Positions 32,563 through 57,833 of a stretch of DNA of 64,000 nucleotides are shown here, one piece after another. Positions within the stretch are counted from its first letter, which is position 1, and the number at the start of each line of letters is the position of its first letter. Source of the DNA: an uncultured bacterium. Lineage in GTDB: Bacteria; Actinomycetota; Acidimicrobiia; Spongiisociales; UBA5794. The position numbers and the translations under genes are program-made. Location: assembly GCA_963801165.1 (NCBI GenBank), contig CAWDDT010000004.1, positions 814,637 to 878,636 of the forward strand, written 5' to 3'. The notes below the pieces were generated by a model that had not been told where the DNA came from, did no database searches, and was given only the letters and a program-made list of their open reading frames with translations.

Positions 32563-33102
32563 TCAGTCCACCAGATCGGCTGGATCGAAGCTGACCTCGG
32601 CCGGTCCGATGTCGAGGGTGACGGTGGTGCCCGGCCCGTGCCGGCCCTGTTCGACCAGGATTCCGTCGACCAGCTTGTAGACGATGACCTCCGGTCCGTC
32701 GGGGTCGATGATCCAGTAGCGCTCGAGCCCGGCCGCGGCGTATTTGGCGGCCTTGCGGATGATGTCCCGGGCAGGGTCCGAGGAGAGCACCTCGACGGCC
32801 AGATACGGTGTTGCGGTGTAGCGCACATCCTCGCCGCGGTCATCGAAGACCATCACATCCGGCCCAAACTCGTCCGGGCCGGGCTTCCAACCCCAGCCCT
32901 CCCGTACACGGGTTGGCATCGATACGGCGCTCTTGAGGATGACCGCAAGGTTGAACGAGACATCCTGATGACGACCACCGGGGAACGGACTCATAACGAG
33001 CTCTCCGTCGATGTACTCGCCTCGGACGTCGGGTCCGAGTGCTTCGTATTCGTTCCAGGACATGGGGATGCGGTCCCCGGGTTGCATGGTCTTGGTAGCC
33101 AT
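32563..33102 (-). CDS. Uma2 family (DUF820) endonuclease, copy 1
   Basis: [22 protein letters not shown]...K..Y...G..YWIIDP; 179 aa. Confidence 0.92.
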   Translation of the reverse strand: MATKTMQPGDRIPMSWNEYEALGPDVRGEYIDGELVMSPFPGGRHQDVSFNLAVILKSAVSMPTRVREGWGWKPGPDEFGPDVMVFDDRGEDVRYTATPYLAVEVLSSDPARDIIRKAAKYAAAGLERYWIIDPDGPEVIVYKLVDGILVEQGRHGPGTTVTLDIGPAEVSFDPADLVD

Positions 33103-33249
33103 GTCATACACAGTAACCCTCCTTCGCCCTCCGCGGTGGTGCGCCTTCAGCACCATCTCATGCGGGTGTGACACGATCCGGCCGGTGCTTGGCTGCGTGG
33201 TCGAGACTCGCGGCTGTCGCGGGTGAATCGCGCCGGGGGACGCGTATGG

Positions 33250-33789
33250 CTATGCCACGAGCTCTACCGGATCGAAGCTGACCTCCGTTGGTCCGATGTC
33301 GAGGGTGACGGTGGTGCCCGGGCCGTGGCGGCCTTGTTCGACGAGGACGCCGTCAGTGAGCCGGTACACGATGACCTCGGGTCCGTCGGGGTCGATGATC
33401 CAGTAGCGCTCGAGACCTGCGGCGGCGTATTTGGCGGCTTTGCGGATGATGTCCCGGGCAGGGTCTGAGGAGAGCACCTCGATGGCCAGATAGGGAAGCG
33501 CGGTGAGGCGCTTTCGCTCGTCGGACACGCCGAATACCGTTACGTCCGGGATGAATTCGTCGTTGTCCGGCTTCCAAGCCCAATTCTCCACTACCTCGGC
33601 GTGCTCCGGCAATGCGACTTCGATGAGTTTGTGGATGCGATAGGCGATCCGTTGGTGGTCTAGCGTCGGCGACGGGCTCATAACGAGTGCGCCGTCGATG
33701 TACTCGCCGCGGACGTCGGGCCCGAGTGCTTCGTATTCGTCCCAGGACATGGGGATGCGGTCCCCGGGTTGCATGGTCTTGGTAGCCAT
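33250..33789 (-). CDS. Uma2 family endonuclease, copy 2
   Basis: Same motifs; 179 aa. Confidence 0.92.
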
Positions 33790-33943
33790 GTCATACACAG
33801 TAACCCTCCTTCGCCCTCCGTGGTGGTGCGCCTTCAGCACCATCTCATGCGGGTGTGACACGATCCGGCCGGTGCTTGTCTGCTGCTCGAGACTCGCGGC
33901 TGTCGCGGGTCAGAACTCGCCGCCGGGGTGACCGCTGTATCGG

Positions 33944-34482
33944 CTATGCCACGAGCTCTGCTGGATCGAAGCTGACCTCTGCCGGTCCGATGTCGAGGGT
34001 GACGGTGGTCCCCGGGCCGTGCCGGCCTTGCTCGACGAGGACGCCGTCATGAGCCGGTACACGATGACCTCCGGTCCGTCGGGGTCGATGATCCAGTAGC
34101 GCTCGAGACCGGCCGCGGCATACTTCGCAGCCTTGCGGATGATGTCCCGGGCAGGATCCGAGGACAGGACTTCGACGACCAGGCACGGTGTTCCGGTGTA
34201 GCGCGTCTCCTCGGGAGTTATGTCGTGAACCACCACGTCGGGGACGAACTCGTCCTTCCCTGGCTTCCACGCCCAATTCTCCACAACAACAATCTCTCTA
34301 GGGAGGTTCGCTTCGATGAGATTGGCAAGTCGACGCGCCAGCTGTTGGTGGCGGTGCGTCGGCGACGGGCTCATAACGAGTTCCCCGTCGATGTACTCGC
34401 CGCGCACGTCGGGCCCGAGTGCCTCGTATTCGTCCCAGGACATGGGGATGCGGTCCCCGGGTTGCATGGTCTTAGTAGCCAT
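33944..34482 (-). CDS. Uma2 family endonuclease, copy 3 (1-nt deletion near 34050)
   Basis: 539 nt versus 540 nt for intact copies. Confidence 0.88.
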
Positions 34483-34629
34483 GTCATACACGATATACCT
34501 CCCTCGCCCTCCACGGTGGTACGCCTTCTGTATCGTCTCAAGCGGGTGTGACAATTTCGGGCGTACCCCTCGCAGTGTGACGGTTGGTGCCACAATGTGC
34601 GTCGGTGGTGCCGTCGATACGGGGGACCG

Positions 34630-37600
34630 ATGCCGATACAGCTTCATGTAGCTCCGCATCCAGACGCGCTCGTCGATTTGCTCATCGACCGGCTTGCCGT
34701 CCCTCCCGAGGATCCGTTTGCGCCGGAGCTGATTGCGGTTCCGACCCGGGGTATCGAGCGGTGGCTGACGCAGCGGATCGCGCTCGGGTTCGCTGAGCGC
34801 GGGATTGGTGACGGGGTGGTCGCCAATGTCGAGTTTCCGTCGCCACGCCATCTGGTGCAACAGGTGCTTGCTGTTGTTCCCGACCTCGCCGCCTCTGCCG
34901 ATGCCTGGCAGACGGCCAACCTCACCTCTCACGTGCTCACCGCCATCGACCGGCATGTCGACGAGGCGTGGCTGCGGCTCATCCAGCGATACATCGACGG
35001 CCCCACCGGGCCCAACCGGCTCGGCGCCGCTACCAAGATCGCCCGGCTGTTCTCGACATACGCCAGGCGCCGTCCCGAGATGATCCGCTCCTGGGCAGAT
35101 GGCCAAGACGTCGGGCCTGCCGGTGAGCCGATCGACGCCGGGTACGCATGGCAGCCGACCCTGTGGCGGGCGGTGCGAGACGAGATCGGCATTCCGCCGC
35201 TCGCCAGTTTGCTGCCGGAAGGGCTCGACCCCATCCGCGACGGATCGATCGACCTCGACCTGCCCGACCGGCTCGCCGTGTACGGGCTCACCGCCACCGA
35301 TCCGCTCGACCTCCAGGTGCTCCGGGCACTCGGCGAGCAGCGGGATGTGGCCCTGTATGCGCTGCACCCCTCGCCGGGGCTGTGGCAGACGCTCGCGGCG
35401 GGCGGGCTGACGGTCATTTCCCGCGACGACGACCCCACCGCAGCCGCCCCGGTGCATCCGCTGCTCGGCTCATGGGGCAGAGACAGCCGTGAGCTACAGA
35501 CGGTGCTGAGCGATGCCGGGCTCGCATCCTCCCTGTCTAGCTCTGGGGATGAACAGCCGTTTGATGCCCTCCCCGGCGAGCCCCTTCGGGGCCGCCGACC
35601 CTCCCAAAGGGAGGGTGAATCTCCCTCTCCCTCTGGGAGAGGTCCCGAGCGAAGCGAAGGGGGTGAGGGCCTTGTGGTGCCGTCCGATATTCCCTCTCCC
35701 TCTGGGAGAGGTCCCGAGCGAAGCGATGCCGGTGAGGGCGTTGTACTGCCGGCCGGTCCGGGGATTCCCTCTCCCTTTGGGAGAGGTCCCGAGCGAAGCG
35801 AAGGGGGTGAGGGCCTTGTGGTGCCGTCCGATATTCCCTCTCCCTCTGGGAGAGGTGGCGAGCGAAGCGATGCCGGTGAGGGCCTTCGACTGCTCGCCCG
35901 GATCCAGGCCGACATCGAGAACAACCGCCCGGCAGAGCCCCAACCCGACCTGGCCGAAGCCGTCACCGCCGGCTCGGATCGCAGCGTGCAGATCCACGTC
36001 ACCTACGGGCCGCGTCGTCAGGTGGAGGTCACCCGCGACGTCATCCTGCACCTTCTCGCCGACGATCCGACCCTCGAGCCGCGTGACATCGTCGTCATGA
36101 CCCCCGACCTCGGCACCTTCGCCCCGTTGCTCGAAGCGGCCTTCCCCACAGGCGACCGCGACGACACCGATGGCATGCCCGACCTGCGGCTCCGCATCGC
36201 CGACCGTTCCCCGGCGGCGGTCAACCCGCTGGTGCGGTTCGCTGCCAGCGTGCTCGAGCTCGCCGACTCCCGCATGGAGGCCAACACCATCCGGCAACTG
36301 GTCACCCGCCCGGTGGTGCAGCAACGCTTCGGGTTCGACGTCGACACGGCGGCGGCCATCACCGGCATCATCAACGACAGCAACATCAGCTGGGGCCTCG
36401 ACTCCGACCACCGGGAGCAATGGGGCGCCGGGCACTTGCCCGACCGCACCTGGAGCCGCGGCCTCGACCGGGCGTTGACCGGCGTCTTTTACAGCGACGA
36501 CCCGGTGCGGGTGATCGACCGCACCGTGCCCCTCGACGGCGTCGAGGGGCAGGACGCCACTCCGGTGGGGCTGCTGGCCGCCCTCATCGACCGCATCGGT
36601 GCCATCCGGGACCTGCTCGCCAACGCGATGCCGATGTCGCAATGGGCGCAGGCGATCGCCGACAGCGTCCGGCTGCTGGCCAAACCCGGCTGGGACGACG
36701 AATGGCAGATTGGCCAGCTGGAGCGGCTGCTCGGCGAGACCTTCCCCGAGACCACACGGGACCCAACGCTCACCCTCGCCGAAGCCCGCCGGGCGATCGC
36801 CGGTTGGACCGAGACCCGGCCCAGCCCGCTGCACTTCCGCACCGGCGACGTCACCGTGTGCACGCTGGTGCCGATGCGCTCGGTGCCGTACCGGGTGGTG
36901 TGCCTGCTCGGCATGGACGACGAGCGCTTCCCCCGCTCCAGCCGCACCGACGGCGACGACCTGCTGGTGGGCGACGAGCGGGTTGGCGATTTCGACCGCA
37001 GCTCGGAGGATCGCCAGCTGCTGCTCGATGCGTTGATGGCGGCAAGCGACCACCTCGTCGTCACCTACTCGGGAAGGGACGAGCTCACCAACAGCGAGCT
37101 GCCCCCTGCGGTGCCCATCGCCGAGCTACGCGACACCCTCGACGACATGGTCGGACCCGACGGGCTCGCCGCCATCGTCACCCAACATCCGCTCCAGTCT
37201 TTCAGCACCGCCAACTTCACCCCCGGCGCCCTCGGTGTGCCAGGGCCGTTTGGTTTCGACGCCGCCGCCTTCGCCGGAGCCGGGGCGATCGCCACCGGCT
37301 CGACGACACCGCTTGTCGAGGCGGGCTGGCCCGACCCCGAGCCGATCGAGACTCTCGACCTCGGCGACCTGATCAAGTTTCTGCAACACCCGGCGCAACG
37401 TTTCCTGCAAACCCGGGTGGGCTATGTGGTGCCAAGGGCAGGTGAGGAGCCCGACGACACGCTGCCCGCCGACCTCGACGCACTCAGCAAGTGGAAGGTG
37501 AAAGAGCAGGTGCTGGACGGCCTGGTCGACGGGTACGCGCTCGATGCCCTTCAGCTGCGGCAACGGGTCGGCGACACGCTGCCGCCGGGGGCGCTCGGCG

Positions 37601-38256
37601 ACGATGATCTTGCCGATGCCGTCGCCGCAGCGAGCGCACTGTGGGAAGGAGCTCAGGAACGTTCCTACCACCGGCAACAGATGCGCACATACCTGGGGAG
37701 TCTCCCGATCGGCGGGGTGACGGTGGCGGGCAGCGTCCTGGGCGATCCGGGCGAGGCACACCTGGCCCGGGTTACGGCATCCACCATCAAGGGCAAGCAC
37801 CGGCTGCAGGCTTTCGTCGAGCTCGTGTTCCTGAGCGCGCTGGAGCCCGAGGTTGCGTGGGAGTCGTTCCTGCTGGGGAGACGGGGCTCGGGGCACCTCG
37901 CGGTGACGATCGGCCCGGTGGGCGGCGATCCCGACCAGCGCCGGCGGCGGTCTCTTGAGTTGCTGGCTGAGCTGGTTGCGCTGCATGCCGAAGGTATGCG
38001 GGAGCCGCTGCCGCTCCCGTGTCAGACCGCCTATGCCTGGCAGCGCAACGTCGGCTCCGATCGGGGCAAGGCTTTTGGTGAGGCGATGAAGGTCTGGGAG
38101 TCCGACCGATACGACCCGGAGGCGCAGGACCCGGCCTACCAGACGTTATTCGGGGGTGTTCTGTCGTTACGGGATTTGCTCGCCACCGACTTCGAGGACT
38201 ACTGCGCCAGGCTCTGGGGCCCGATCTTTCCTTTGATGCGGGAGCAGAGCATATGA
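34630..38256 (+). CDS. recC: Exodeoxyribonuclease V gamma subunit with in-frame palindromic-repeat insertion
   Basis: [54 protein letters not shown]; first gene of the recCBD operon. Confidence 0.93.
35567..35883 (+). repeat. REP-like palindrome cluster inside recC
   Basis: CCCTCTCCCTYTGGGAGAGG..CGAGCGAAGCGA..GGTGAGGG units at 35623, 35692, 35767 and 35836, plus a CCCTCCCAAAGGGAGGG hairpin. Confidence 0.92.
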
Positions 38257-41200
38257 CCGCCTTCTCCGAATTCGACCCCCGTGAGCCACTAAGCGAAGGC
38301 CGCACCGTCATCGAAGCCAGCGCCGGCACCGGCAAGACCTTCGCCATCTCCGCCCTGGTAACCCGCCTCATCGCAGAGGAAGGCCTCCCCCTAGAAGAGA
38401 TCCTGGTAGTCACCTTCACCAGAGCCGCCACCGCCGAACTACGAGCAAGGGTCCGCGACCGAATCCTGCTGACGCTCCGTGCGCTAGAAGCGGCGGGCGC
38501 CGCTCGCTTCCTCGCCCTCGACCGGGCTGAGCCCGGTCGATCCCCCCGAAATGGGGGGATTACTGCTGGTTCCGAAGCCGGTGGCCCCGCTATTTCCTCT
38601 CCCTTTGGGAGAGGTGGCGAGCGAAGCGGAGCTGGTGTGCCCGGTTCTTTCCCTCTACCTGGGTGAGGCTGGGACTGGTGGGACGCTGACCGGGCTGTGC
38701 CCGGTTCTTTTCCTCTCCCTTTGGGGAGGTGCCTGCGTGGGAGCTGAAGGGTGTGCCCGGTTCTTTCCCTCTCCCTTCGGGTGAGGTGCCTGAGGGGAGT
38801 GAGCTGGTGTGCCGGTTCTTTCCCTCTCCCTTTGGGTGGGGCTGCGCTGGCCGGGAGCTGAGGGTGAGCCCGGTTCTTTCCCCTCGCCTTCGGGTGAGGT
38901 GACCTGGTGGGTAGTCCGAAGCCGGTGGCTCAGCAGTAACCCTCCCCTTGCGGGAGGGTCGAGGGAACGCCAGCGACCGAGGGGAGGGGAGGGCGAACCA
39001 CGCTGGAACGTCGTCCGAGACCCAAACTCCGAACCAGTCAGACGAACATGTCGCAGTCCTCCTCCAGGCCGACCCGGCCACCCGCGACCTGTACGCCACC
39101 CGCCTCCGCCAGGCGCTGACGCATTTCGACCGTGCCCAGATCTTCACCATCCACGGGTTCGCCCAGCGGCTGCTCGGCCAGCTCGGGTTGCGGGCCCGCC
39201 TCTCACCCGACCTGGAGCCGGGGGAGCCCGACGAGTTGCTGTTGACCCAGACCGCAAGCGACCTGATCGTCGGCCGCTACGCAGACAACGCCGCCGAGCA
39301 GCCCCCCAAGTTCAGCGACGTGGTTGGTGTTGCCCGTGCCGTCATCGGCACGCCGGACGCCCGCATCGTCCCCGACCCGGACGACGTCGACGGTGCGGCG
39401 AGGGCCCGGGTGGAGCTGGCACACGCCATGCGCACCGAGGTGCACCGCCGGATGCAGGCGCAGGGCCAGGTGACCTACGACGATGGGCTGCTCGAGGTAC
39501 GGGACACCCTCGGTGACCCGGAGGTGGGTGCCGCCGCCCGTGAGGTGTTGATGCGCCGCTATGCGGTGGCGCTTGTGGACGAGTCGCAGGACACCGACCC
39601 CATCCAGTGGCAGGTGATCCGGGCGATCTTCGACGAGTCCCGGCTGGTGGTGATCGGCGACCCGAAGCAGTCGATATACAGCTTCCGTGGCGCCGACATC
39701 GAGTCATACCTGGCCGCCCTCGACGGCGCCGACTCGCTGCGGACGTTGCGGACCAACTGGCGCAGCGACGGCGGGCTGCTGGTCGGCCTCGATGCGTTGT
39801 TCGATGAGGCCAGCTTCGGCGACGACCGGATTCGCTATCTCCCGGTGCAGCCGGCCCCGGGCCACGAGCACGCCCGCATCACCGGCATCGCGGCACCGCT
39901 GTCGATCCGTCGCTTCGGCACCGGCATCCCCATCAACAAAGCGAGGAAGGGCGTCTTCTACATCAACGACGCCCGCCAGATGGTGGCCGCCGATGTCGCC
40001 GCCGAAATCGTCCGTCTGCTCACCTCGGGAGTGACCATCACCGGCCCCGACGGGCCGCGGCCGCTGCGTCCCGACGACATTGCGGTGCTGTGCCGCACCC
40101 GTCGCCAGGTGGACATGGTGCGTGGCGAGCTGACCCGTCGTGCGGTGCCGTCGGTGGCGGCCCGCACCGGGGGAGTGCTCGCCTCGGCCGCCGCCGAGGA
40201 GTGGCGGCGATTCCTGCACGGCGTCGAAGCCGCCGAGCGGATGGACCGGGTCAAGCTGGCGGCCAGCTCGCTGCTCGTCGGGTACACGCCGCAGCAGATC
40301 GCCGCCCTCAGCGACGAGGAGGCGCTGGAGCTGCAACGCCGGATGCAGCAGTGGCGGGAGCTTCTATACAACGACGGGATCCCGGCGCTGGTGGCAGCCG
40401 TCGACCGGTTCTGCGGGCTGTCGGCACGGGTGCTGACGGTGCCGGACGGGGAGCGGATCATGACCGACCTCACCCACATTGCCGAGGAGTTGCATGCGGT
40501 GTGGCGGCGGCGCCGGATCGGCTCGCTGGTGGGGTGGCTGGAGACGGCGATGGCCGAGGCGGCCCAGCGGGAGCTGACCGGCGCCGAGGAGGCCGAGTCC
40601 CGGCAGCGTCGTCTCGAGACCGACGCCGATGCGGTGCAGGTGCAGACCGTCCACGCCGCCAAGGGTTTGCAGTGGCCGGTGGTGATGGTGCCGTACGGGT
40701 GGGATGCCCCGGCCCGGCGTTATCCCATCCCGGTGTTCCACTCCGACGAGCCGACCGCCGTGGGTGACGCCAGGGAGCGACTCATCGACGTCGGAGGCAA
40801 TGGCGCCCCCGGCTTCGCCGACCATGTGCACCGGGCATCGGCCGAGGATGCCGGTGAGGAGGCCAGGCTGTTGTATGTGGCGTTGACCAGGGCCGAGCAT
40901 CACCTGGTGGCGTGGTGGGTGGAGAACACCGACAACACGCCGAACTCGAAGCTGGACGAGCTGCTCACCGGCGACGACCGCACCCTCGACGGACTGGTCG
41001 AGATCGCAGGCGGCAACATCGGGGTGGTGATGGTGAACGATCGCCCATCCACTACCCGGTACCGCCCGGCGGCGCCACAGCCGCAGCGTCTGGAGCGGGC
41101 CCGGCTCGATCGCCGCCTCGACTACGACTGGCGGCGGGCCTCGTTCTCATCGTTGTCGCCGGAGCACCCCATCGGGGCCGCCACCGACACCGCCGAGCCC

Positions 41201-42065
41201 ACCAAGGCGGACGAGTCCGACTTCGCCGTCGAACCGGAGGAGGAGCCCGTCGCCGGGGAGTCGTCGTTGCCGATGGCGGAGCTGCCCCGCGGCGCCCGCT
41301 TCGGCACGCTGGTGCACCACATCTTCGAGCAGGTGCCGTTCGACGCCCCGGACCTGGAAGCGGCGATCCGGGAAACGGCGGAGGAGGCGTTGCGGCTGGC
41401 CGCCTGGGACATCGACCTCGACACGCTCACCGCGGCGGTGCTGGCGGCGATGGAGACCCCGCTCGGCCCCGATCCGGCGTCACCCCGGTTGCGGGACCTC
41501 GATGCCGCACCGGGTATTCGACGAGCTGACCTTCGAGCTGCCGGTCCGCACCGACCGGGGCACGGTGTCGCTGCGGGACATCGGCGATGTGATGCTCGAG
41601 CACCTCGACCCCGCCGACCCGTTCCGCCGCTACGCCGAGACCCTGCACACCATGCCGCAGACCCGGTTCCGCGGGTTCCTCACCGGCGCCATCGACCTGA
41701 CCGCAGTGATGCCCGGCGAGCGCTACGTGGTGATGGACTACAAGACCAACGCCCTCCCGACGCGAAGCGACGCCCCGGCCGCACCCGACTACGGCCCGCA
41801 CCAGCTGACCACAGCGATGATCGACGGCAACTACGTGCTCCAGGCCACCCTCTATCAGGTGGCCCTGCACCGCTACCTCCAGTGGCGTCTCGCCGGCTAC
41901 GACCCGGCCCGCCACCTGGGAGGCGCCATGTATCTGTTCGTCCGCGGCATGGCCGGCCGGGATGCCCCGGTGGTTGACGGCGAACGCTGCGGCGTAGCCC
42001 GCTGGACCCCACCCCCGGAGATGATTGTTGCCCTCAGCCGCCTGTTCGCAGGAGACGCCCAATGA
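38253..42065 (+). CDS. recB: Exodeoxyribonuclease V beta subunit, interrupted by a palindromic-repeat insertion (~38500-39040) and a frameshift at ~41510
   Basis: EASAGTGKT, VVTFTRAATAEL, TIHGF, VDESQDTD, IGDPKQSIYSFRGAD, TVHAAKGL, YVALTRA; nuclease motif GAIDL..DYKTN. Confidence 0.9.
38515..39000 (+). repeat. REP-like palindrome cluster inside recB
   Basis: GATCCCCCCGAAATGGGGGGAT, CCTCTCCCTTTGGGAGAGG, five degenerate ~57-nt CCGGTTCTTTCCCTCTCCC units, CCCTCCCCTTGCGGGAGGG. Confidence 0.88.
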
Positions 42066-44699: not shown

Positions 44700-44722
44700 T
44701 GACCCTGGGTGTTCTGGACATG

Positions 44723-46396: not shown

Positions 46397-46437
46397 CAAT
46401 CCGGTCGCAACAGACCGCATCGTTGGCGAACGGGCTC

Positions 46438-47012: not shown

Positions 47013-47020
47013 GGAATCAA

Positions 47021-47065: not shown

Positions 47066-47080
47066 CAATCCGGGCGGCAG

Positions 47081-47368: not shown

Positions 47369-47512
47369 AATGGGATGGGCCCAAGAGCCGTCGAGGCCGC
47401 TTGCAGCCGTCAGGCCGTCGATCTGCGCTACGGTCAGCGCCCATGTTGTCGGAGACTCGTCTCCCGTGAGATCGCCACGGCCCCGGATCCGCGTACCAGT
47501 CCGCTCGAGTCC

Positions 47513-48136
47513 TTACTCGGGTCGGAGTTGCCACGGCTCGTGCTCGTGTGTAAGCCAGACCCGGACGGGATCGAGGGCGCGCACCAGCCGTTGGCCGTCG
47601 GTGCTCGGCTCGTCGAGCTCCCCGAACCACACTGCGACATCACCACCGACGACGACCGGGCGCCCACCAGTGTCGACGACGACGATCTGCGTGCCGCGTG
47701 TGTGGCCCGGTGCTGGGACGAGGCGGACCCCGGGGAGCAGCTCGAGTTCGCCGTCGACCGGGATGTACTGCACGCCGCGCGCATCGACCCATTCACGGAT
47801 GGTGTACCCCTCCTCGCTGTGCGCGTCGTCGAGCTCCCTACGCTGGACGTAGATCGGCTTGCCGGTGAAGAGGTGGTTGCCGCCGCAATGGTCGAAGTGA
47901 AGGTGCGTGTTGACAACGAGGTCGACGCTGCCGAGATCGAAGTCCTGCTGGCTCAGCGGACGGATACGGGGATCAAGGTCGGCCACAGCCGGGTGCAGTT
48001 CCGTGAGGCCGGTGTCGACGAGCACGCGAGCGTCGGGATGATCGATGATGTGCACGTAGATGGGTAGCCGCTCGCTCTCTGCCAGCAGGTCGCCGACGAA
48101 GATCGGTGTGACGGTGATCGAGGCGGGAGCGTTCAT
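47513..48136 (-). CDS. MBL-fold metallo-hydrolase, AHL-lactonase-like
   Basis: LVDTG, THLHFDHCGG, PGHTRG, GGD, TH motifs. Confidence 0.88.
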   Translation of the reverse strand: MNAPASITVTPIFVGDLLAESERLPIYVHIIDHPDARVLVDTGLTELHPAVADLDPRIRPLSQQDFDLGSVDLVVNTHLHFDHCGGNHLFTGKPIYVQRRELDDAHSEEGYTIREWVDARGVQYIPVDGELELLPGVRLVPAPGHTRGTQIVVVDTGGRPVVVGGDVAVWFGELDEPSTDGQRLVRALDPVRVWLTHEHEPWQLRPE

Positions 48137-48247
48137 GGTGTCTCGGCCACCGCATTCGCAACGTGACGCACGATGGCCTCGTTTGCGTGTTCGTGGCTGG
48201 AGTGTGGGTTAGTGGTCATCGGAGGATGGGAGCCTCTGCGTTTCGGG

Positions 48248-48786
48248 TCAGTTGAGTAGCTCTGCGGGGTGGAAGCTGACCTGTGTCGGTCCGACGTCGA
48301 GTGTCACTGACGTGCCCGGGCCGTGACGCCCCTTCTCGACGAGGACGCCGTTGGTGAGCTGGTATACGATGACCTCGGGTCCGTCGGGGTCGATGATCCA
48401 GTAGCGCTGGAGCCCGGCGGCTGCGTATTTGGCGGCTTGCGGATGATGTCCCGCGCCGGGTCAGATGACAGGATCTCGACCACGAGGTGTGGTGTCCCCG
48501 AATGGCGGGTCTGCTCGGGGGAGTCGTCGTGGACCGTCACATCGGGTACGAACTCGTCGTTGCCGGGTTTCCATCCCCAGCCCTCGACGACACGTGCCGG
48601 AGCGGTTAATGCCGTCTTCAGAATGATGGCGAGATTGAGCGATATGTCCTGGTGTCGATGGGTAGGTGACGGGCTCATGACGAGACTCCCGTCGATGTAT
48701 TCGCCACGCACATTGGGGCTGAGTGCTGCGTATTCGTCCCAGGACATGGGGATACGGTCGCCGGGCTGCATGGTCTCGGTAGCCAT
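48248..48786 (-). CDS. Uma2 family endonuclease, copy 6 (1-nt deletion near 48437)
   Basis: 539 nt; same termini as the other copies. Confidence 0.88.
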
Positions 48787-48949
48787 GTCATACACAATAG
48801 ACCTCCCTCGTCCCCCGCGGCGGGGCCTCTCGAGCATCATCCCTGCCAAGGGAAACTGCGCTCGGTGGCCCCTCCACGGCGGAGCCTCGCGATGATGATG
48901 ACGCAGGGCTGTGATACGCCGCGTGGCCTATAGACCGGGGGTCGTCTTT

Positions 48950-48996
48950 CCTCTCCCTTTGGGAGAGGACGCGAGCGAAGCGAAGCAGGTGAGGGC
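48950..48996 (+). repeat. Single REP-like palindrome
   Basis: CCTCTCCCTTTGGGAGAGG..CGAGCGAAGCGA..GGTGAGGG. Confidence 0.85.
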
Positions 48997-49174
48997 ATCA
49001 GCACTGGCCACCAGGAGGAGAATGACCCGGACAAAAGAGGCCGACAACCCGGCAGGGAGGAGCCGGCCATCGCCCCGGCGAGTCTCCCCGGCGTAGGGGC
49101 CCGGACCGGAAATGGCTGCCAGGCCCTCTTGCGTCGGCCATGATGCCGGCAACTTCGGGGATGGAGAGGGAGAG

Positions 49175-49714
49175 ATGGGCCAGCAAGCAGGCACGATCGT
49201 TTGGCGACGCCGCGACGACGATGCGACGCACCAACAGAGGATGCAGCGCTTCTGGATGTTCTATGCGGCGCCGGTGGCGCTGCTCATCGTAATTGTGGCC
49301 GTCCTGGCCGACGTTGGCGTCGCCGCCGGATTGCTGATTCTGCTCGGCGCGATCGGGGCGCTGCTGTTCGTGTGGATCTGGCTGGATGGGCGCAACAAGC
49401 GTGTCAACCCGACGGTAACCCTCGAAGCGGGGGAGCTCTGCTGGGCCGAGCGCCGGGTTCCGGTGGATCAGGTCAGCCGGTTCAGCACCTACAAGGACTC
49501 GGCCTCCATGGAAGTGGGTGGGAGCAGCGTGGGATCCTCGGTGACCGCTTCGACAGCTCTCGGTGTCGCTCTCTTTCTGCTGGTTGATGGGAGCGAGGTC
49601 AAGTTCACCTGGGCTTCTCTCGACGACCAGCAACTGGACGAGTTGCGCACGGCGCTCGAAGAGGTGCTCCCCGGTCGTTGGCGGCCACTCGACACGTTGC
49701 GTCAATCCGACTGA
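49175..49714 (+). CDS. Hypothetical membrane protein (2 TM plus soluble domain)
   Basis: GAGGGAG RBS, hydrophobic hairpin, plausible codon usage. Confidence 0.65.
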   Translation: MGQQAGTIVWRRRDDDATHQQRMQRFWMFYAAPVALLIVIVAVLADVGVAAGLLILLGAIGALLFVWIWLDGRNKRVNPTVTLEAGELCWAERRVPVDQVSRFSTYKDSASMEVGGSSVGSSVTASTALGVALFLLVDGSEVKFTWASLDDQQLDELRTALEEVLPGRWRPLDTLRQSD

Positions 49715-49910
49715 GGGCTTCGCCCGCTCGGTAGGTGGCGCTCGTCGAAGGTGGCGATGTCGACGACGTCGAGGTGTGCCGCCAGTGTCACCAGGCGAGG
49801 ACGGTCGCATGAACGCGACTTTGGGACATTGCCCGTACGGAGTGGACGGGGTGTCCAACTTGTCGTTCGGTGAAGAGTCGTGATCCCACATGTAGCGGAG
49901 GCGAACGGAT

Positions 49911-50327
49911 CTATGCGAGTTCGCTAATGACCGTTATGCCGGGCGCGCCCAGGAATACCCGGTCATGGGTCACGAGGGGGAGATCCAATACCACGGCAGT
50001 TGCCGCGATCCACAAATCGGCCATGTGCGTCTTGCCGGCGAGAGCGTGGCCGTCCGTCCGAGCGTCGGCACGTAATGTGGCCCAGCTATGAGCAAGCTGA
50101 TCGTACGGCGGGATCTGAGCCGCCTTTGCGATTTGCCTCTCCATCGCGTTGACACGATCCGGACTCCAAGAAGCAAGAAGTGCCCCGAACCTCATCTCCG
50201 CAACTGTTTGAAAGGAAACGACCAATCTTCGACCTGATAGGTGCTTGTCGTACTGGCGGGCAAGGGCATGGTTTGATAGCACGGCCGAGAAGACGTTGGT
50301 GTCTACCACGACGGCGGGTGCTTTCAT
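49911..50327 (-). CDS. PIN-domain (VapC-like) ribonuclease
   Basis: VVDTNVFS, TVAE, ADLWIAATA...LPLVTHD..F. Confidence 0.9.
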   Translation of the reverse strand: MKAPAVVVDTNVFSAVLSNHALARQYDKHLSGRRLVVSFQTVAEMRFGALLASWSPDRVNAMERQIAKAAQIPPYDQLAHSWATLRADARTDGHALAGKTHMADLWIAATAVVLDLPLVTHDRVFLGAPGITVISELA

Positions 50328-51220
50328 TCGAAACCGAGCGCCTTGCGGAATGTGGTTCCTTCCTCCTCGGTGAGATCGTCTATGGCGAGATCGGCGATCG
50401 ACCCGATCGGTACTGTTGCGTTCAAGGCCCGGTCCGGGTCGAAAGCCCAGAAGGACTCGTCCCCGGGTGCTGTCTGCGTCTCTACGTGTTCAACGGCAAG
50501 GCCGGTGATCCTGCCGCCGCTGTCACGCTCGATCTCGCCGCTGAGCGCGACCGTGCTTCGCACGAGATGATCGAGCCGGGTGGCGATGGCGCTCCCGGGT
50601 TCGACGTGGCAGTTGATGGCGTGGCCCGTGTTGTCTTCGAGCGTGTACGTGCCGGTCTTGGCATTCAGCGCGTAGAGCTCACCCTCGATCGTGCCCCGCT
50701 CAGGAAGCACGGTCGGCTGGGGCAAAAGTGGCGGAACGGCCACGGCGGATGGGCGCAACGATGTTGTCTTCCTCTGGCCATGATGCTCTAGCGTCCACTC
50801 GAGGCTGTCGTATCGTGCGGTCGCGTCGACGATGGAGCGCAGCTCGTCCCTGATCGGCTCGGTGTAGGACTCCGGGAGTGGTTGTCCCAGAGCAATCGCT
50901 TCCAGGGCCTCGGAGATCAGCTCGAGTGCCTGGAGTCCGCTATCAGATTCCACCTCGCCGGGTAGATCTAATTCCGGAGCCCACGCCGGAGCTTCGATCT
51001 CCAATACGGCGCTACCGGGGTGGATGCCGACCGCAACCAGGTCGGTGACGCGGTCGAGGTAGCTGGGCGGCCGTCCCGGCCCACCCTTCCCTGCGACGGC
51101 CCTGCCGAGCTTGCGCACCAGCTCTTGAGCATGGCCGGCGACCTTCGCCAGATCATCAAGGGGGATGGCGCCGTCGACTCCGCCGCTGAGACGAAGCTCA
51201 ACACGAGCCCGCGGTTCCAT
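50324..51220 (-). CDS. Hypothetical ~300-aa protein translationally coupled to the PIN gene (start uncertain)
   Basis: Long ORF with ATGA overlap; acidic C-terminal helix IDDLTEEEGTTFRKALG. Confidence 0.7.
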   Translation of the reverse strand: MEPRARVELRLSGGVDGAIPLDDLAKVAGHAQELVRKLGRAVAGKGGPGRPPSYLDRVTDLVAVGIHPGSAVLEIEAPAWAPELDLPGEVESDSGLQALELISEALEAIALGQPLPESYTEPIRDELRSIVDATARYDSLEWTLEHHGQRKTTSLRPSAVAVPPLLPQPTVLPERGTIEGELYALNAKTGTYTLEDNTGHAINCHVEPGSAIATRLDHLVRSTVALSGEIERDSGGRITGLAVEHVETQTAPGDESFWAFDPDRALNATVPIGSIADLAIDDLTEEEGTTFRKALGFE

Positions 51221-51514
51221 GTGGTTGGCGATGGCCGGTCCTTTCTGCGCTCTGCTGAGAATACCCATGATGACATTGTCAGCGTCGCCGGTGACAGATT
51301 CGCAGCGTGCCCACAATCTCGGCCTGATTCGATTCCGCCCTGTATTCGTCATTGCCTTGCGAGCGCCTTCCGGGAGGCTCACGACGAGAGCGTGTTGCCC
51401 CCGAGTCGACACTCACTGACCTTCGGCCGCCGCTGACCGGCGCTGGCCTACGCGGATTTCTGCAGTTCGGCACTGTCAATTACCGTCGGGATCTACCGGA
51501 CGTAGGAGGGACTG

Positions 51515-53585
51515 ATGCGCTCACGAGGCCTGGTGGTGGTGTTCACCGTGACAGCTGCCTTGATGGCGGTGCCTGCCGGTGCTCATGCAGATCTCACCTT
51601 CAACGGCACCATCGAGGGCCGGGTGACCCTGTGGGGGTCGGGTGAGCCGGTCGAGGGGGCCGAAGTGCGTGGCGTGTATGAACACGGTGCGGTGGACACG
51701 ACCACCGACGCCGACGGCTACTACCGGCTCGAGACCCTGGAATCCGGCACATACAACGTCACCTTCCGCATCGGGTCCAGCGATCCGTTCTGGTATTACC
51801 CGGGCACCTACGAGTGGTCCGAGGCGACGGACCTGACGATCATCAACGACGAGGTGTACACCGGGATCGACGGCATGGTGCAGGAGGTAGGCACCATGAT
51901 CGGCAGGGTCACCGACGACACTACCGGTGATCCGGTTGCCGGGATGTGTGCCGATGTCTACGACACTGCGAAAACCGTCGTGGGTACGGCTGTCTCCAAT
52001 GCCGACGGATGGTTGCTGTACCCGGGGATAACGGTTGGTACGAGCGACCAGTGGTTGGCGAGCGCAGCCCGCCTGTACGACTGCAGCGACCTCGGGTACA
52101 TCGACGAGTGGTATCGCAACGTCCCCCCTCAGCTCTCCGGTGGCCACAATGTCGTCGAGTACCTGAGCGAGCAGGGGCGCTTTGACGCTGCGGTGGGTGC
52201 GCCGGCTGCGATAGGGGGAACCGTGACCGACGCAGGCGACACACCTCTGGCGGGCATCTGTGTCTCCCTCAACTATTCCAACAGCGTCCTGGCGACGACG
52301 ACGTCTGACGACGCCGGCTACTACGAATTCCTCGGCCTGACCGCTGGAGATCACTACAGCCTCGACCTCGAAGACTGCGGTTCCCCGATGGTGTACATGA
52401 CGTTGGATCGTGTACCGGTGGCTGCGATCAGCGGCGCCACGAGCTACTACAACCACGTGTTGGAACCAACCGCTTCGATCAACGGCACGGTCACCGATGC
52501 ATCGACCGGACTTCCGCTCGAAGGTATCTGCGTGCTCGCCACCGCCGACCTCCATGCAGGTGCGCAGTTCGGGACGACGTCTACCGATGCCTCCGGCTTC
52601 TACTCCCTGGCGGTGCCGGCTGTCGTCGAACACCAGTATGTGCATGCCTATTGGTGTGGGGGCTCACCGGCGCTATATGCAAATCTCTGGTGGGACGATG
52701 TCACCACATATGAAGAGGCGACCGATCTCCAAGTTGGTGATGGCGAGCACCGCACCGGTGTCGACTTTGCACTACCGGACAAGGCGACGACGGAGAACTG
52801 GCTGACGGTATCTGTGGATGACCTGCTGGGTCGTTCGCTGGAGGACGTGTGCGTTGCGGTCTCCGGCGACGCCGCGGCGGAGGGGAAGACCGGAACGGAC
52901 GGCACGGTGGTGCTGGCGCTGGCTGGCGGCGACTACACGGTGACGGCAGGTGTCGCCGGGACGGGTTGTGTCGCCGGGTATGAGGAGGCGAACGGAGTCG
53001 GTCTCGGTCGCCGGGCCTACGAGCGTATCGATCACGCTGGCGCTACCGGTGGAGTTCACCGACACACAGGACAGCGTGTTCGCCGCCGACATCGACTGGC
53101 TTGCCGGCGCCGGGGTCACCAAGGGGTGCAATCCGCCGCTCAACACCGAGTTCTGCGCCGACCAGGTGGTGACGAGGGGTCAGATGGCGGCGTTCCTGGC
53201 CCGGGCGCTCAGCCTGACCGACCGGCTGGATGACCCGTTCATAGATGACGATGGTTCGGTGTTCGAGGCGGACATCGAGAAGCTGGCCGCCGCCGGGATC
53301 ACGAGGGGCTGCAACCCGCCGGTGAACGACATGTTCTGCCCCGATGAGGCGGTGACGAGGGGTCAGATGGCGGCGTTCCTGGTGCGTGCCCTCGGCTACA
53401 CCGAAGCCGGTGACGGCGACCTGTTCATAGACGACGACGGCTCGGTGTTCGAGGATGCAATCGATCGTCTTGCCACTGCTGGTGTCACTAGGGGCTGTAA
53501 CCCGCCGGTGAACGACATGTTCTGCCCGAACGATGTGGTGACCAGGGGCCAGATGGCGGCGTTCCTGCACCGGGCGTTGGGGTGA
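51515..53585 (+). CDS. Secreted protein with carboxypeptidase-regulatory-like repeats and 3 SLH-like domains (frameshift ~52990)
   Basis: Signal peptide, repeated I.G.VTD..G.PL.GICV...TD..G.Y; GCNPP SLH repeats in ORF 52950..53585. Confidence 0.82.
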
Positions 53586-53609
53586 GCGTCACCCGGCATG
53601 TCTGTTGGC

Positions 53610-54271
53610 TCAGGCGGGCTCGATGATCTCGGACTCGGCCGGTATCCCGGCGGTGACGACGTGGCCGTCTGCCACTCGCCGGTAGCTGCGGAACGTGATC
53701 GGGATGCCGTGGGCGGTTTCCCACCGGGTTGAGTCGGTCACCTGGAGATGGACGTGTGGCTGGGTGCTGTTCCCCGAGTTGCCGCACTCTGCGACCTGTT
53801 CGCCCACTGTTACCTCGTCACCGGGCTGCACCCGCACCGTGCCCCGGTACAGGTGAACCAGCCAGACGTATGGGCCGTCGGGTCCGAGGGCGATGGCGAC
53901 ACAGTTGCCCGCGATTGCAGGCAGGCCCCGGCGCATCCGTCGTGGCTGTCCGAATGCGTAGGGGATGAGGGCGAGTTGGGATCTGCGGGCTACATGGTCG
54001 GGCTCTCCGTCGTGGATGGCTGCGACCGTCCCTGAGGAGGCGCCAGGATGGCCTTGCCGAAGGCCACGAACGTTTCGGGTTGCTCGGTGGCAAGCAGGCT
54101 GCGCCATCCCCGCGGTGCCGACCGGCCGTGGTCGTCGACGGCGATGAAGTCGATGGCGTAGGTGACCCCGAAGCGATGGGTGCCGTGGCTGGGTATCCGC
54201 CGCGCAGGACTGTTGCGGGCCAGCCACCGACCCCGGAACGGCAGATCGAGCAAGACTTCCCCGTCGGTCAC
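53610..54271 (-). CDS. M23 family peptidase (frameshift ~54030)
   Basis: LPFRGRW, H...YAIDF, GN.V.I, HL..G.V.V..G, CGNSGNSTQPHVHLQ; GGAGG RBS plus GTG. Confidence 0.82.
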
Positions 54272-54304
54272 GGCACCTCCTTCCAAAACCGACCGCTCGC
54301 AGTG

Positions 54305-54371
54305 GGGCTCATGACCAACGCCCATCGGCGTATTCGCCGCGGTCGCCGGGTTGCATGGTCTCGGTTGCCAT
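54305..54371 (-). pseudogene. Internally deleted Uma2 5' remnant with its promoter (copy 7)
   Basis: [16 protein letters not shown] followed by the LVMSP-coding DNA; conserved TATCGTGTATGACATG upstream. Confidence 0.8.
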
Positions 54372-54450
54372 GTCATACACGATAAGCCTCCTTGCCGTCG
54401 TGTGGAGTGGCCTCACCTACCGGAGCGCCCCAGTTGTCGATCCGGCTCGG

Positions 54451-54990
54451 TCAGTCGAGGAGATCTGCCGGATCGAAGGTGACTTGGGCAGGGCCGATGT
54501 CGAGGGTCGCCTCGGTGCCCGGACCGTGTCTGCCTTGTTCGACGAGGATTCCGCCGACGAGCTTGTAGACGATGATCTCGGGTCCGTCGGGGTCGATGAT
54601 CCAGTAGCGCTCCAGCCCGGCATCAGCGTATTTGGCGGCTTTGCGGATGATGTCCCGAGCCGGGTCCGAGGACAGGATCTCGACGACGAGGTGTGGTGTC
54701 CCCGCATAGCGGGTCTGTTCAGCGGTGTCGTCGTGGACCGTCACATCGGGTACGAACTCGTCGTTGCCGGGTTTCCATCCCCAGCCCTCGACGACACGTG
54801 CCGGAGCGGCCAGTGCCGTCTTCAGGATGATGGCGAGATTGAGCGAGATGTCCTGGTGCCGATGGGTCGGTGAGGGACTCATGACGAGATTTCCGTCGAT
54901 GTACTCGCCGCGGACGTCGGGGCCGAGCGCTTCGTACTCGTCCCAGGACATGGGGATGCGGTCCCCGGGCTGCATGGTCTCTGTTGCCAT
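54451..54990 (-). CDS. Uma2 family endonuclease, copy 8
   Basis: Intact 179 aa; core nearly identical to copy 6. Confidence 0.92.
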
Positions 54991-55316
54991 GTCATGCACG
55001 ATATACCTCCTTGCCGTCCGGTGCGGTGGCCTCACGGGACCACGATCGCGATAAGGGTGTGACAGGTTCGGGCGCTCGAGTCCGGCGGGCCAAGATGCTG
55101 CCGCCGGGTCCGCATCGGCGGAGCGCTGGGCGTCGTTGGCTGCCCGGGCAGAGTCGAGCACGGATCAGGTGGCGGTAGGGACGCTGCTCGACGAGTTCGC
55201 TTCCCGATCCAAGATTTGGCGACGTCTTGTCGACGAATCGCAACGACGTGAGATCGAATCGATTCTGGATCGCACCACTACCGAGATCGATCAGGTACTA
55301 GTAGTAGGAGAACACG

Positions 55317-56420: not shown

Positions 56421-56490
56421 TGATTGGCAGGGGATCGGCACTGACGTAATCATGTCCGCTGTTTGCGGAGGGCCGGCACTACCCGCTGGC

Positions 56491-56892
56491 TCAGACCGAC
56501 ACCAGTTGTAGTGGCAGGATCCGGGCCATGTCGGCGAAGTCCCGGTCGGCGGCGAGCAGCTCGGCTCCGGTGCGGATAGCGATGTTGGCGATCATGCAGT
56601 CGATGAGGCCTCGGGGCGTGACACCCCCGGTGCGGCAGGCTCGGTACACCTTGGCGGCGCCGACGAAGTCGGCAACGGGGTCGGCGCCGAGCCACTGGAA
56701 CGACTTGAGCAGTCGCTCGAGCTCGGAATGCCGGGTGTCGTCTTTCGCGCCGGCGAGGACCTCCATCAGGACGGGTTCAGTGACGGCGAGGGCGGTACCG
56801 CCCGCGGTGATGAGCGATGTCATCGCCCGATCTGTGGCCGAGCCGGTGGCACGGTCGTATTCCACCCACGCTGACGTGTCGGCGAGTATCAC
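56491..56892 (-). CDS. vapC: VapC PIN toxin
   Basis: MILADTSAWVEYDR, EVLAGA, IDCMIA, DRDF. Confidence 0.92.
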   Translation of the reverse strand: MILADTSAWVEYDRATGSATDRAMTSLITAGGTALAVTEPVLMEVLAGAKDDTRHSELERLLKSFQWLGADPVADFVGAAKVYRACRTGGVTPRGLIDCMIANIAIRTGAELLAADRDFADMARILPLQLVSV

Positions 56893-57083
56893 GGGCGTTG
56901 ATCATCAGGGATGGTGCCGATGGCGTGGGCTCCCCGCATGTCGAGAGCCTCTGCGATCGTCATCGGTTTCCCGGCGAGGTGACGCAGCGCAAGATCCACG
57001 GCTTCACGCTTGGTGTGGACCCCGTAGCGTCTCATGATCGCCGCGACGAGTTCTTCGTCGAGGTCGATATTGGTTCGTGCCAT
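56889..57083 (-). CDS. vapB: VapB antitoxin (DUF2191-like)
   Basis: MARTNIDLDEELV...YG..TKREAVDLALR; TACACC direct repeats upstream. Confidence 0.9.
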   Translation of the reverse strand: MARTNIDLDEELVAAIMRRYGVHTKREAVDLALRHLAGKPMTIAEALDMRGAHAIGTIPDDQRP

Positions 57084-57182
57084 GGAGCCACCATACACCA
57101 TATATACACCTTACACACCTAGTTGGTTGCGACGGTTTGGCGACCCTGGTGATCTTGGCATCGGCTTCGTCGGGGGTGCGGC

Positions 57183-57731
57183 TTAGTCGAGCAAATCTGC
57201 GGGATCGAAGGTGACTTCGGTCGGCCGACGTCGAGCGTCGCCTTGGTGCCGGGGCCGTGTCTGCCTTGTTCGACGAGGATGCCGCCGGCGAGCTTGTAGA
57301 CGATGATCTCGGGGCCGTCGGGATCGATGATCCAGTAGCGCTCCACCCCGGCCGCCGCATACTTGGTCGGCTTTGCGGATGATGTCGCGGGCCGGATCCG
57401 AGGAGAGGATCTCGACAACGAGATGTGGTGCCGGGCCGTTAGCCGCTTCTGCTCCTCGGAAGCGGCGAGACACCATTACGTCGGGTATGAACTCGTCGTT
57501 TCCGGGCTTCCATGCCCAGTTCTCCACCACCTCGGCGTCGCCGGGCAGCACCGCCTCGATCAGGATGATGGCAAGCCGCCTGGCGAGATCCTCTGGTGGT
57601 CGAGCGTCGGCGATGGGCTCATGACGAGGCTTCCCGTCGATGTACTCCCCACGGACGTCGGGGCCGAGCGCTTCGTATTCGTCCCAGGACATCGGGATCC
57701 GGTCGCCGGGCTGCATGGTCTCTGTTGCCAT
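57183..57731 (-). CDS. Uma2 family endonuclease, copy 9 (multiple indels)
   Basis: Same termini; several small frameshifts. Confidence 0.8.
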   Translation of the reverse strand: MATETMQPGDRIPMSWDEYEALGPDVRGEYIDGKPRHEPIADARPPEDLARRLAIILIEAVLPGDAEVVENWAWKPGNDEFIPDVMVSRRFRGAEAANGPAPHLVVEILSSDPARDIIRKADQVCGGRGGALLDHRSRRPRDHRLQARRRHPRRTRQTRPRHQGDARRRPTEVTFDPADLLD

Positions 57732-57833
57732 GTCATGCACGATATACCTCCTTGCCGTCCGGTGCGGTGGCCTCACGAACCACGATCGCAGACGGGTGTG
57801 ACACGACTTGGTCGAAGCTGGGGGATCCGCCGA

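Follow-up and report, generated by a model that had tools for sequence, protein, structure and literature searches.

Uma2 copies around recBCD

The window analysed here, a stretch of 64,000 nucleotides (positions 814637-878636 of contig C4 in the genome that we call G000), contains nine sequences of the Uma2 family of putative nucleases, clustered around recBCD. We have named the six long copies c1, c2, c3, c6, c8 and c9 and the three remnants r4, r5 and r7. A sequence-only reading of this DNA had placed all of them on the minus strand, and translation, a search of the genome and DNA alignment recovered each one where it had been reported. Along the window, and together with the leader of the first copy, they are:

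32563-33111, minus: c1, intact Uma2 copy (ATG at 33102, probable GTG start at 33111; PF05685 match with E 4.5e-27), the nearest to a phasin-like gene
33112-33190, minus: conserved leader of ~80 nucleotides, TGTCACACCC ... AAGGAGG ... GTG, preceding c1
33250-33798, minus: c2, intact Uma2 copy with a PF05685 match (ATG at 33789)
33944-34491, minus: c3, Uma2 copy with a one-nucleotide deletion near codon 148 in this assembly (ATG at 34482), divergent from recC
44526-44699, minus: r4, remnant of the 3' end (the last ~57 codons only), adjoining recD
47081-47371, minus: r5, remnant that begins near codon 84 and continues to the stop, immediately upstream of a ribbon-helix-helix (RHH)-MazF pair
48248-48795, minus: c6, Uma2 copy with a one-nucleotide deletion, in this assembly, in the AAA run after IIRK (ATG at 48786)
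54305-54380, minus: r7, remnant with ribosome-binding site, codons 1-11, an internal deletion and a frame break (ATG at 54371), directly downstream of c8
54451-54999, minus: c8, intact Uma2 copy (ATG at 54990), a uniform orthologue of G003_a1871 with 9 differences in 564 nucleotides, used as non-mosaic control
57183-57740, minus: c9, Uma2 copy with seven indels in compensating groups that leave the frame open (ATG at 57731), directly upstream of VapB-VapC

The six near-full-length copies of the sequence-only reading are all present, but an open frame of 540 nucleotides and 179 codons is found only in c1, c2 and c8. The PD, E and K residues that were said to be kept are indeed there in these three, and in c3 and c9 when the frame is corrected, but in c6 the codon of K117 is hit by the deletion and reads X. 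The indels of c9 (+1, +2, +3, +1, +2, +1 and -1, over 549 nucleotides) are such that its conserved blocks are reached only across frame shifts, and this copy is probably a true pseudogene, more so than c3 or c6. An intact protein of the c3 type was found elsewhere (P0017). Among the remnants, r4 is orthologous to the 3' end of a full copy of the congener G003 (G003_b3911; 91% identity to L013, 4277-4460), and r7 lies within a block that is 95% identical to the same genome. A six-frame search of the whole genome for Uma2 gave 13 matches (12 of them above the cut-off), all at the copies described here or at three places outside the window, and the family search found no other kind of Uma2 gene in the genome. 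Outside the window there are a 57%-identical copy with a different C-terminal end (C4:144107-144577, minus strand) and, at the same locus ~680 kb away on the same contig, a stop-containing remnant that retains the TGTCACACCC leader (C4:135833-136285, plus strand); one further remnant is on contig C5.

Homology among the copies runs from ~80 nucleotides upstream of the ATG through the stop codon and then ends. All six long copies have their own leader and ribosome-binding site, and the leader element of c1 is seen also before c2, c3, c8 and c9 (motif at 33860, 34553, 55064 and 57803). An AAGGAGG-type ribosome-binding site lies 6 nucleotides before a GTG that is itself 9 nucleotides upstream of each ATG. 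Because of this placement the GTG is likely to be the start codon, giving a predicted protein of 182 amino acids as in most database homologues. The TGTCACACCC motif has 23 matches in the genome against ~10 expected (a rough estimate from composition), 6 of the 23 at Uma2 copies. We have considered it as a genome-wide regulator site and rejected this possibility; the motif is a part of the repeat unit and not a regulon signal. A scan of 32300-34700 for promoter and terminator consensus found no site, with no sigma-70 consensus at the leader, and an Rfam scan of 30-60 kb, leader included, gave no match.

The assignment of these proteins to the family is clear. The Pfam Uma2 profile (PF05685, cut-off 27 bits) matches c1, c2 and c8 with 95.1, 95.1 and 97.8 bits (E 4e-27 to 7e-28). 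The AlphaFold2 model (predicted local distance difference test, pLDDT, 86.1; predicted template modelling score, pTM, 0.82) has a PD-(D/E)XK (restriction-endonuclease-like) fold, with best Foldseek matches to the Uma2 structures 3ot2, 9y1l, 6okh and 1wdj (E 3e-11 to 7e-8 for the best chain of each; template modelling score 0.66-0.77), and the first three were matched also by a profile search of the PDB sequences. All these solved structures are annotated as uncharacterised or putative nuclease, and no Uma2-DNA complex is among the Foldseek matches. The model consists of a helix (residues 16-21), strands (28-37), a second helix (43-57), strands (64-68, 83-87 and 101-105), a third helix (111-123) and a beta-rich C-terminal part. 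Feder and Bujnicki (2005; PMC551604) defined for the family an H-PD-EXX-K site in which the lysine has moved into the following helix. In our alignment of homologues H45, P81, D82 and E104 are invariant and K117, located in the predicted helix 111-123, is present in 93 of 94 proteins; in the predicted structure H45, P81-D82, E104-x-x and K117 reproduce this site. The prediction of a c1 homodimer had a score of 0.00 and was counted neither for nor against binding or an interface. The Uma2 copies are putative active nucleases. Our best guess for their role, in line with proposals already published on the family, would be a solitary toxin-like or selfish nuclease. We have found no experimental function or biochemical test of any Uma2 family member in the literature, supplementary files aside.

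A word-indexed homologue search gave 711 proteins at E <= 1e-5 among 928 candidates, and the best 120 of the 711 are 63-99% identical, with several sharing contigs. The 94 aligned proteins are the three intact window copies and 91 of these 120, 29 having been excluded as the window's own proteins or for atypical lengths. Positions 8-36 and 99-134 are nearly invariant in this alignment, and residues 40-98 are variable, many columns having two common alternatives, with H45, Q46, W72, D77, P81 and D82 invariant among them. The pattern of constant ends and a variable core at the protein level, noticed already in the sequence-only reading, holds once the frame of c9 is corrected, with the core at codons 40-98, and so do all its statements about which copies share which blocks (SPTHRHQ, SPTLDHQ, NLAx and the others). 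This core consists of the confident helix 43-57 (pLDDT 89-98) and the next strands and loops, and it begins at the predicted active-site histidine, since H45 would be the H of H-PD-EXX-K.

Mosaic structure of the copies

The identity between copies changes abruptly along the gene. Copies c1 and c2 share 99% of their positions upstream and 93% at the N end, fall to 54% in the core and return to 92% in the block that follows. The reverse is seen between c6 and c8, with 55% upstream and 93% in the core (88-100% in the sliding scan), and c8 and c9 have 90% upstream and 67% in the core. Each copy can be read as a combination of parts. In c1 the 5' end matches c2 with 95-100% identity, the core is of the type of G006_b1307 (74-82%) and the tail resembles the copy of G014 and G005. 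The tail of c2 is 92-97% identical to c3 and its core is identical (177 kept columns) to those of G014_a14403 and G005_a11141. Both the 5' end and the tail of c9 are c8-like (90-100%), with a core that is weakly c2-like (63-83%). A sliding nearest-neighbour scan of the copies is consistent with these mosaics.

Pairwise difference maps place sharp breakpoints at the borders of the conserved blocks. Between c2 and G014_a there is an identical run of 197 nucleotides with flanks ~13% divergent, and between c1 and c2 an identical run of 74 nucleotides at the 5' end (permutation p 1e-4 in both cases). The control pair, c8 and G003_a1871, has its 9 differences spread uniformly over 564 nucleotides (p 0.61), and therefore the pattern is more than variation in rate along the gene.

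Recombination tests gave a similar picture. In our own, permutation-based implementation of the pairwise homoplasy index (PHI), none of 1000 permutations was as low as observed for the six window copies (132 informative sites), and none of 300 for 17 copies from the genus. The sequence-only reading had seen conflicting relationships among blocks, and separate maximum-likelihood trees for the two ends and the core do disagree. The core tree contains the starred clades c6+c8+G003_a1871 and c1+G006_b1307, absent from the ends, and c2 is identical there to G014_a14403 and G005_a11141. The 5' tree groups c1 with c2 and c8 with c9 and G003_a1871, and the 3' tree groups c2 with c3. In approximately unbiased (AU) tests of clades that were named after the trees had been seen, four of nine rejected the foreign clade (p 0.048, 0.016, 0.045 and 8e-5).

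A way to follow the exchange beyond a single genome is to compare the locus among relatives. Of 30 relatives, 8 carry the Uma2 subfamily, and among the 14 that belong to the same genus there are 5 with it, their copies forming co-oriented clusters close to the ends of contigs. In G003, G005 and G014 the order recD-recB-recC is followed by a divergent Uma2 gene, a Phasin_2/eCIS_core gene and another Uma2 gene; a short contig of G010 has recC and then two Uma2 copies, and tandem pairs are found also in G006. Adjacency of recC and Uma2 is seen in 5 of the 6 same-genus genomes with the subfamily, G000 included. Between recC and the phasin-like gene G000 has three copies and G010 two, and there is a single one in G003, G005 and G014. 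In G014 and G005 this copy joins a c2 core to a c1-like tail, and its flanks run into the c3 side (towards recC) and the c1 side (towards the phasin-like gene). In G003 its first half is c3-like and its second half c1-like. From their sequences the single copies look like chimeras produced by crossover. Comparable joints occur in database proteins obtained from other samples, P0017 having the N end and core of c3 (98%) with a c1-like tail and P0005 a c8 core (95%) with a c9-like tail.

Linkage among 55 two-state columns of the protein alignment falls from an r2 of 0.18 at 1-5 residues to 0.04 beyond 40 (Spearman -0.17, 0 of 2000 permutations), a decay that is compatible with recombination throughout the family. 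Taken together, these comparisons bear out the recombination or gene conversion anchored in the conserved ends that the sequence-only reading had proposed. It moves cores and tails, in other assemblies as well as in this one.

The variable island and its neighbours

The other features of the region are as follows:

30855-31979, minus: gene with Phasin_2 and eCIS_core domains, conserved downstream neighbour of the recC-side Uma2 (92-99% amino acid identity in G003, G005 and G014)
34597-38256, plus: recC, divergent from c3, with the same adjacency in G003, G005, G010 and G014
38253-41977, plus: recB, divided in this assembly between two frames, 38253-38666 and 38948-41977
42062-44461, plus: recD, in three frame pieces in this assembly
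44526-55082, no strand assigned: variable island of 10.6 kb, from the stop codon of r4 (Uma2 3' end) to the 5' leader of c8
44919-45656, plus: AbiEi, in the island (toxin-antitoxin module with AbiEii)
45653-46396, plus: AbiEii, in the island
46438-46779, minus: MazF, in the island
46776-47066, minus: RHH antitoxin, in the island
56491-56892, minus: VapC (PIN), with VapB directly downstream of c9
56889-57101, minus: VapB, directly downstream of c9; the VapBC pair lies beyond the island

The island is missing in G005, where an intact PadR-like gene lies between recD and a sensor gene; in G000 it cuts off the PadR-like gene. The version of G003 has ~3.7 kb, and in it the leader of the full copy b3911 is c6-like and its tail r4-like. 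Since the island ends at Uma2 sequences and differs among congeners, the insertions and deletions that separate close relatives are bordered by the co-oriented copies. With regard to the PadR-like gene itself, comparison of 55082-55130 with L017:1350-1800 shows that it is intact in G005, with a palindromic upstream element, and that only its 3' end is left in G000 and G003, where it borders the Uma2-bounded island.

One alternative is a selfish, homing-like element, proposed for COG4636 in PMC551604, in which the Uma2 nuclease would make breaks and repair would copy the gene with co-converted flanks to new sites; mosaics, remnants and patchiness would have been left behind as it spread. The patchy distribution of the subfamily described above would fit such an element, and so would the variation in copy number between congeners, the interruption by a Uma2-bearing island of a gene that is intact in G005, and the many decayed copies. 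Yet the homology between copies stops at the stop codon and ~80 nucleotides upstream, so there is no shared target-site flank. Furthermore, the copies of the genome lie in two or three clusters and are not dispersed, crossovers between neighbouring copies explain the chimeras without a site-specific break, and the nuclease activity on which the proposal depends is, by sequence, putative. We consider this origin of the arrays improbable.

As for the small adjacent antitoxin gene that a type II toxin-antitoxin module would have, none lies next to c1-c3 or c8. Copy c9 and remnant r5 lie directly upstream of VapBC and RHH-MazF, each of which is a complete toxin-antitoxin pair in itself.

The Phasin_2/eCIS_core gene encodes 374 amino acids, with a Phasin_2 N-terminal part, a C-terminal eCIS_core domain (formerly DUF4157-type) and weak, coiled-coil-like matches to ZorA, and it is always flanked by Uma2 in G003, G005 and G014. 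The distribution of recC is patchy, in 8 of 30 relatives and 5 of 14 of the same genus; a second recC of G014 is on contig C10. Five relatives have both recC and this Uma2 subfamily, three have only recC, three only Uma2 and 19 have neither, in a set of genomes that are kin and many of them incomplete. Both recBCD (by synteny) and the Uma2 subfamily are accessory and adjacent in one Acidimicrobiia-type genus. The frame breaks of recBCD (38253-44461) are either indel errors in a stretch of 70% G+C or decay of recBCD in the genus. A three- or four-way alignment of recBCD with congeners, aimed at dating these indels, contained many divergent segments.

Some observations concern other parts of the window. 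The genes at 15809-18718 and 51515-53585 consist of tandem units of ~180 nucleotides with CarboxypepD_reg or Ig-like repeats which cross-match, and in G003, G005, G006, G010 and G014 these repeats match a gene, itself rich in repeats, that lies a few kb away from the Uma2 cluster. Near the contig end, at 62177-63346 on the minus strand, there is an open reading frame with an AAA_12 (superfamily-1 helicase C-terminal) domain. The open reading frames at 49112-49714, 50324-51412, 57808-58812, 58862-59572 and 59950-60963 had no Pfam match.

Selection, turnover of the family and known systems

To glimpse at the forces acting on the different regions we have used the ratio of nonsynonymous to synonymous divergence (dN/dS), from Nei-Gojobori pairwise counts in which most core pairs are saturated. 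At the ends dN/dS is 0.02-0.25 among the 15 pairs of window copies and has a median of 0.08-0.14 among the 136 pairs of the 17 genus copies, with one N-end pair at 1.07. In the core of the same 136 pairs the median is 0.27 and the maximum 0.59. Five core pairs are informative, meaning that dS is above zero and below 0.8 (unsaturated). Four of them give 0-0.19, namely c6-c8 (0.19, at a dS of 0.21), c6-G003a (0.16), G006a-G010a (0.08) and c8-G003a (0); the fifth, G014_b-G005_b, gives 0.55 from four differences between copies that are both frameshifted. The diversifying selection suggested by the sequence-only reading is not what these values indicate. Median dS is 0.88 at the N end, 1.53 in the core and 0.95 at the C end, so that the ends are not constant in their DNA. 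What maintains them is mainly purifying selection on the protein, with a partial homogenisation that is strongest in the tandem neighbours c1, c2 and c3 (N-end dS 0.16-0.32). Synonymous divergence as high in the ends as in the core would have been expected under plain purifying selection; it is lower in the ends, and recombination therefore stands. The constant ends are, as the alignment shows, a profile of conservation common to the entire subfamily, and gene conversion has made them more alike still. Core types in turn are conserved across genomes, that of c2 being identical in three of them and c8 being 98% identical to its orthologue in G003.

These results bear directly on the idea, put forward in the sequence-only reading, of a selected repertoire in which the core is a specificity module and recombination between the ends makes new specificities for anti-phage defence or DNA-damage processing. 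Several points go along with it: each genome keeps several core types, each conserved across genomes; the core begins at the invariant H45 and contains a confidently predicted helix; new combinations within the core are seen in G003_c14013 and c9; AbiE, MazF and VapBC modules are neighbours; and recC adjacency recurs in the genus. In addition, four models of the PADLOC candidate PDC-S03, in which the S presumably stands for single-gene, match c1 (E 1e-21 to 9e-10) and c8 (7e-26 to 3e-10). Entries of this kind are candidates with a putative function (PMC11514479), and all that can be drawn from the match is that defence genes are found in the vicinity of Uma2 genes. Against the idea, core dN/dS is nowhere above 1 and is low in most recent pairs, the cores are stable between species with no turnover, and c9, the sole window copy with a newly mixed core, is frame-broken. 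The remnants r4, r5 and r7 carry end sequences and almost no core, and are therefore unable to act as donor cassettes; nor is there, as said above, an experiment on any Uma2 protein in the literature found. Searches of the whole genome gave no reverse transcriptase (PF00078), 20 tyrosine recombinases (PF00589), none of them in the window, and one serine recombinase (PF00239), on contig C6 and likewise not in the window. There is no sign of programmed diversity generation, whether as dedicated machinery, donor cassettes or positive selection. With stable cores, core-poor remnants and no dedicated enzyme, we consider a specificity repertoire for defence or repair unlikely.

We favour, with a probability of roughly three in four, the reading that Uma2 is a birth-and-death family shaped by passive, homology-driven gene conversion and unequal crossing-over, with ends conserved for protein function. 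The family (COG4636, PF05685) occupies a hypervariable, toxin-antitoxin-rich stretch that flanks recBCD to either side. Strong purifying selection acts, throughout the subfamily, on the first 39 residues and on the block that begins near residue 99, and since these end blocks are 85-100% identical in DNA between copies, they offer places for ordinary homologous recombination to begin and to be resolved. Under this reading the ends of neighbouring copies would be homogenised by gene conversion, and unequal crossing-over between co-oriented copies would make the arrays grow or shrink and delete or duplicate the DNA in between. As recombination takes place in the conserved ends, the divergent cores, whose types are ~55-65% identical to one another, would be carried along as blocks; a few old types of them would persist, all kept by purifying selection. 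This turnover would leave remnants and frameshifted copies behind as decay products, some of which may instead be assembly errors. The mosaics and their breakpoints, the differences in copy number, the boundary of the island and the mode of selection are seen in the sequences themselves, and the recombination pathway that produced the mosaics is what we infer.

A number of observations weigh against this reading. Without c9 the PHI test of the remaining five copies is not significant (p = 0.08), and the other five of the nine AU tests gave p 0.068-0.184, which, with clades chosen after the trees were seen, makes these tests weak. Because core synonymous divergence is saturated, dN/dS is reliable only in a few recent pairs. 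The lower dS of the ends could come partly from codon bias, in a genome of 65% G+C, rather than from conversion, and the short-range linkage in the protein alignment could be partly local structural coupling or contacts between neighbouring residues and not recombination. The presence of several core types per genome, each conserved between genomes, leaves room for functional differentiation, which the favoured reading regards as passive. A long shot in this direction is that the central block (H45, helix 43-57, the hairpin and the loops) is a swappable substrate-recognition module, the arrays beside recBCD a repertoire for defence or surveillance and the conserved ends homology arms, with RecBCD-dependent reassortment of old modules between copies and strains. 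Frame breaks in recB and recD, here and in congeners, and the nearly identical copies G014_b and G005_b, which differ by isolated one-nucleotide indels, belong to the same list, since they raise doubts about the assemblies; from the window alone mis-joined repeats are a residual possibility.

These last points lead to the question of whether the mosaics, the triple array and the frameshifts are artefacts of a metagenome-assembled genome in which repeats were mis-assembled or poorly polished. The single-nucleotide frameshifts of c3 and c6 may be of this kind, as recBCD is frame-broken at different places in G003, G005 and G014 and isolated indels of one nucleotide separate the two copies just mentioned. 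Moreover, copies lie near contig ends in most genomes, the estimated contamination of G000 is 5.6%, and public short-read contigs cover the locus in short, low-depth pieces only. For the mosaic as a whole such an origin appears very unlikely. The same combinations of ends and cores occur in independent records (the c2 core in G014 and G005, c8 98% identical to G003_a over the whole length), a 99% match to c1 exists in a database cluster whose longest contig has 453,848 nucleotides, and tandem pairs are present in G006 and G010 too. The breakpoints fall at conserved-block borders as recombination predicts, and the recombinant proteins P0017 and P0005 come from other samples. The public DNA runs contain related strains, mostly 95-99% alike, in which no contig spans a whole copy with both flanks; no RNA runs for the locus are listed among the public reads. 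Two joints, from 33191 to 32548 (X3) and from 33880 to 32548 (X1), each on a single contig, hint that other strains carry a c1-like tail where G000 differs, fitting P0017. The spacer just downstream of the c1 stop codon (32514-32547) has the same three small indels and several substitutions in all four public runs, either a strain difference or a local consensus error.

The turnover of a birth-and-death family, with cores carried between homogenised ends, can be compared with several known systems. In the phase-variable hsdS shufflons of type I restriction and in the silent cassettes of pilE/pilS there is one expression site, and the donors are promoterless, partial and carry the variable parts; the repeats are usually inverted and a dedicated recombinase is often involved. 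The model of the sequence-only reading would work in a like manner, with conserved segments around variable specificity modules in several copies, which recombination brings into new combinations. Here, in contrast, a leader and ribosome-binding site are present at each of the long copies, constant parts make up the remnants and all the repeats are direct.

Closer in mechanism are bacterial multigene families with concerted evolution by gene conversion, such as the antigen loci of Mycobacterium tuberculosis (PMC13061034). In both cases homology-dependent exchange between paralogues gives trees that conflict from one part of the gene to another and stretches with hardly any divergence. In the Uma2 locus both ends are conserved and homogenised and the central block escapes, and there is no known link to antigenicity.

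The closest comparison is with the family itself (Uma2/COG4636/DUF820, TT1808), in the cassettes of cyanobacteria, Thermus and others. PMC551604 describes COG4636 as proliferating, horizontally spread and possibly selfish nucleases with tandem duplications, and predicts that its dispersed copies promote rearrangement by homologous recombination. Makarova et al. (2009; PMC2701414) regard the family as a likely solo toxin whose members 'mostly form[s] cassettes of paralogous genes', in Thermus and Thermosynechococcus it is described as expanded to 15-17 copies (PMC1274311, PMC9403480), and Steczkiewicz et al. (2012; PMC3424549) list it as a predicted endonuclease. The locus studied here shares with these cassettes the family, the fold and the H-PD-EXX-K site, as well as the multiple copies, the tandem paralogues, the patchy distribution and the frequent toxin-antitoxin neighbours. 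No new mechanism is revealed by it, as cassettes and their recombinogenic potential are already in print. Uma2/COG4636 is a large and widespread family, often with dozens of copies, and the locus shows in nucleotide detail how its arrays can evolve, with homogenised ends, old cores, crossover chimeras and Uma2-bounded indels. Residues ~40-98 are the part of the protein likeliest to differ functionally between paralogues. We have not found a description of such an end-homogenised, core-preserved Uma2 mosaic in the literature, supplementary files aside. What distinguishes this locus from the known cassettes is its Acidimicrobiia-type host, the tight clustering around recBCD, the recC adjacency within one genus and the documentation, at the nucleotide level, of this mosaic together with its crossover chimeras.

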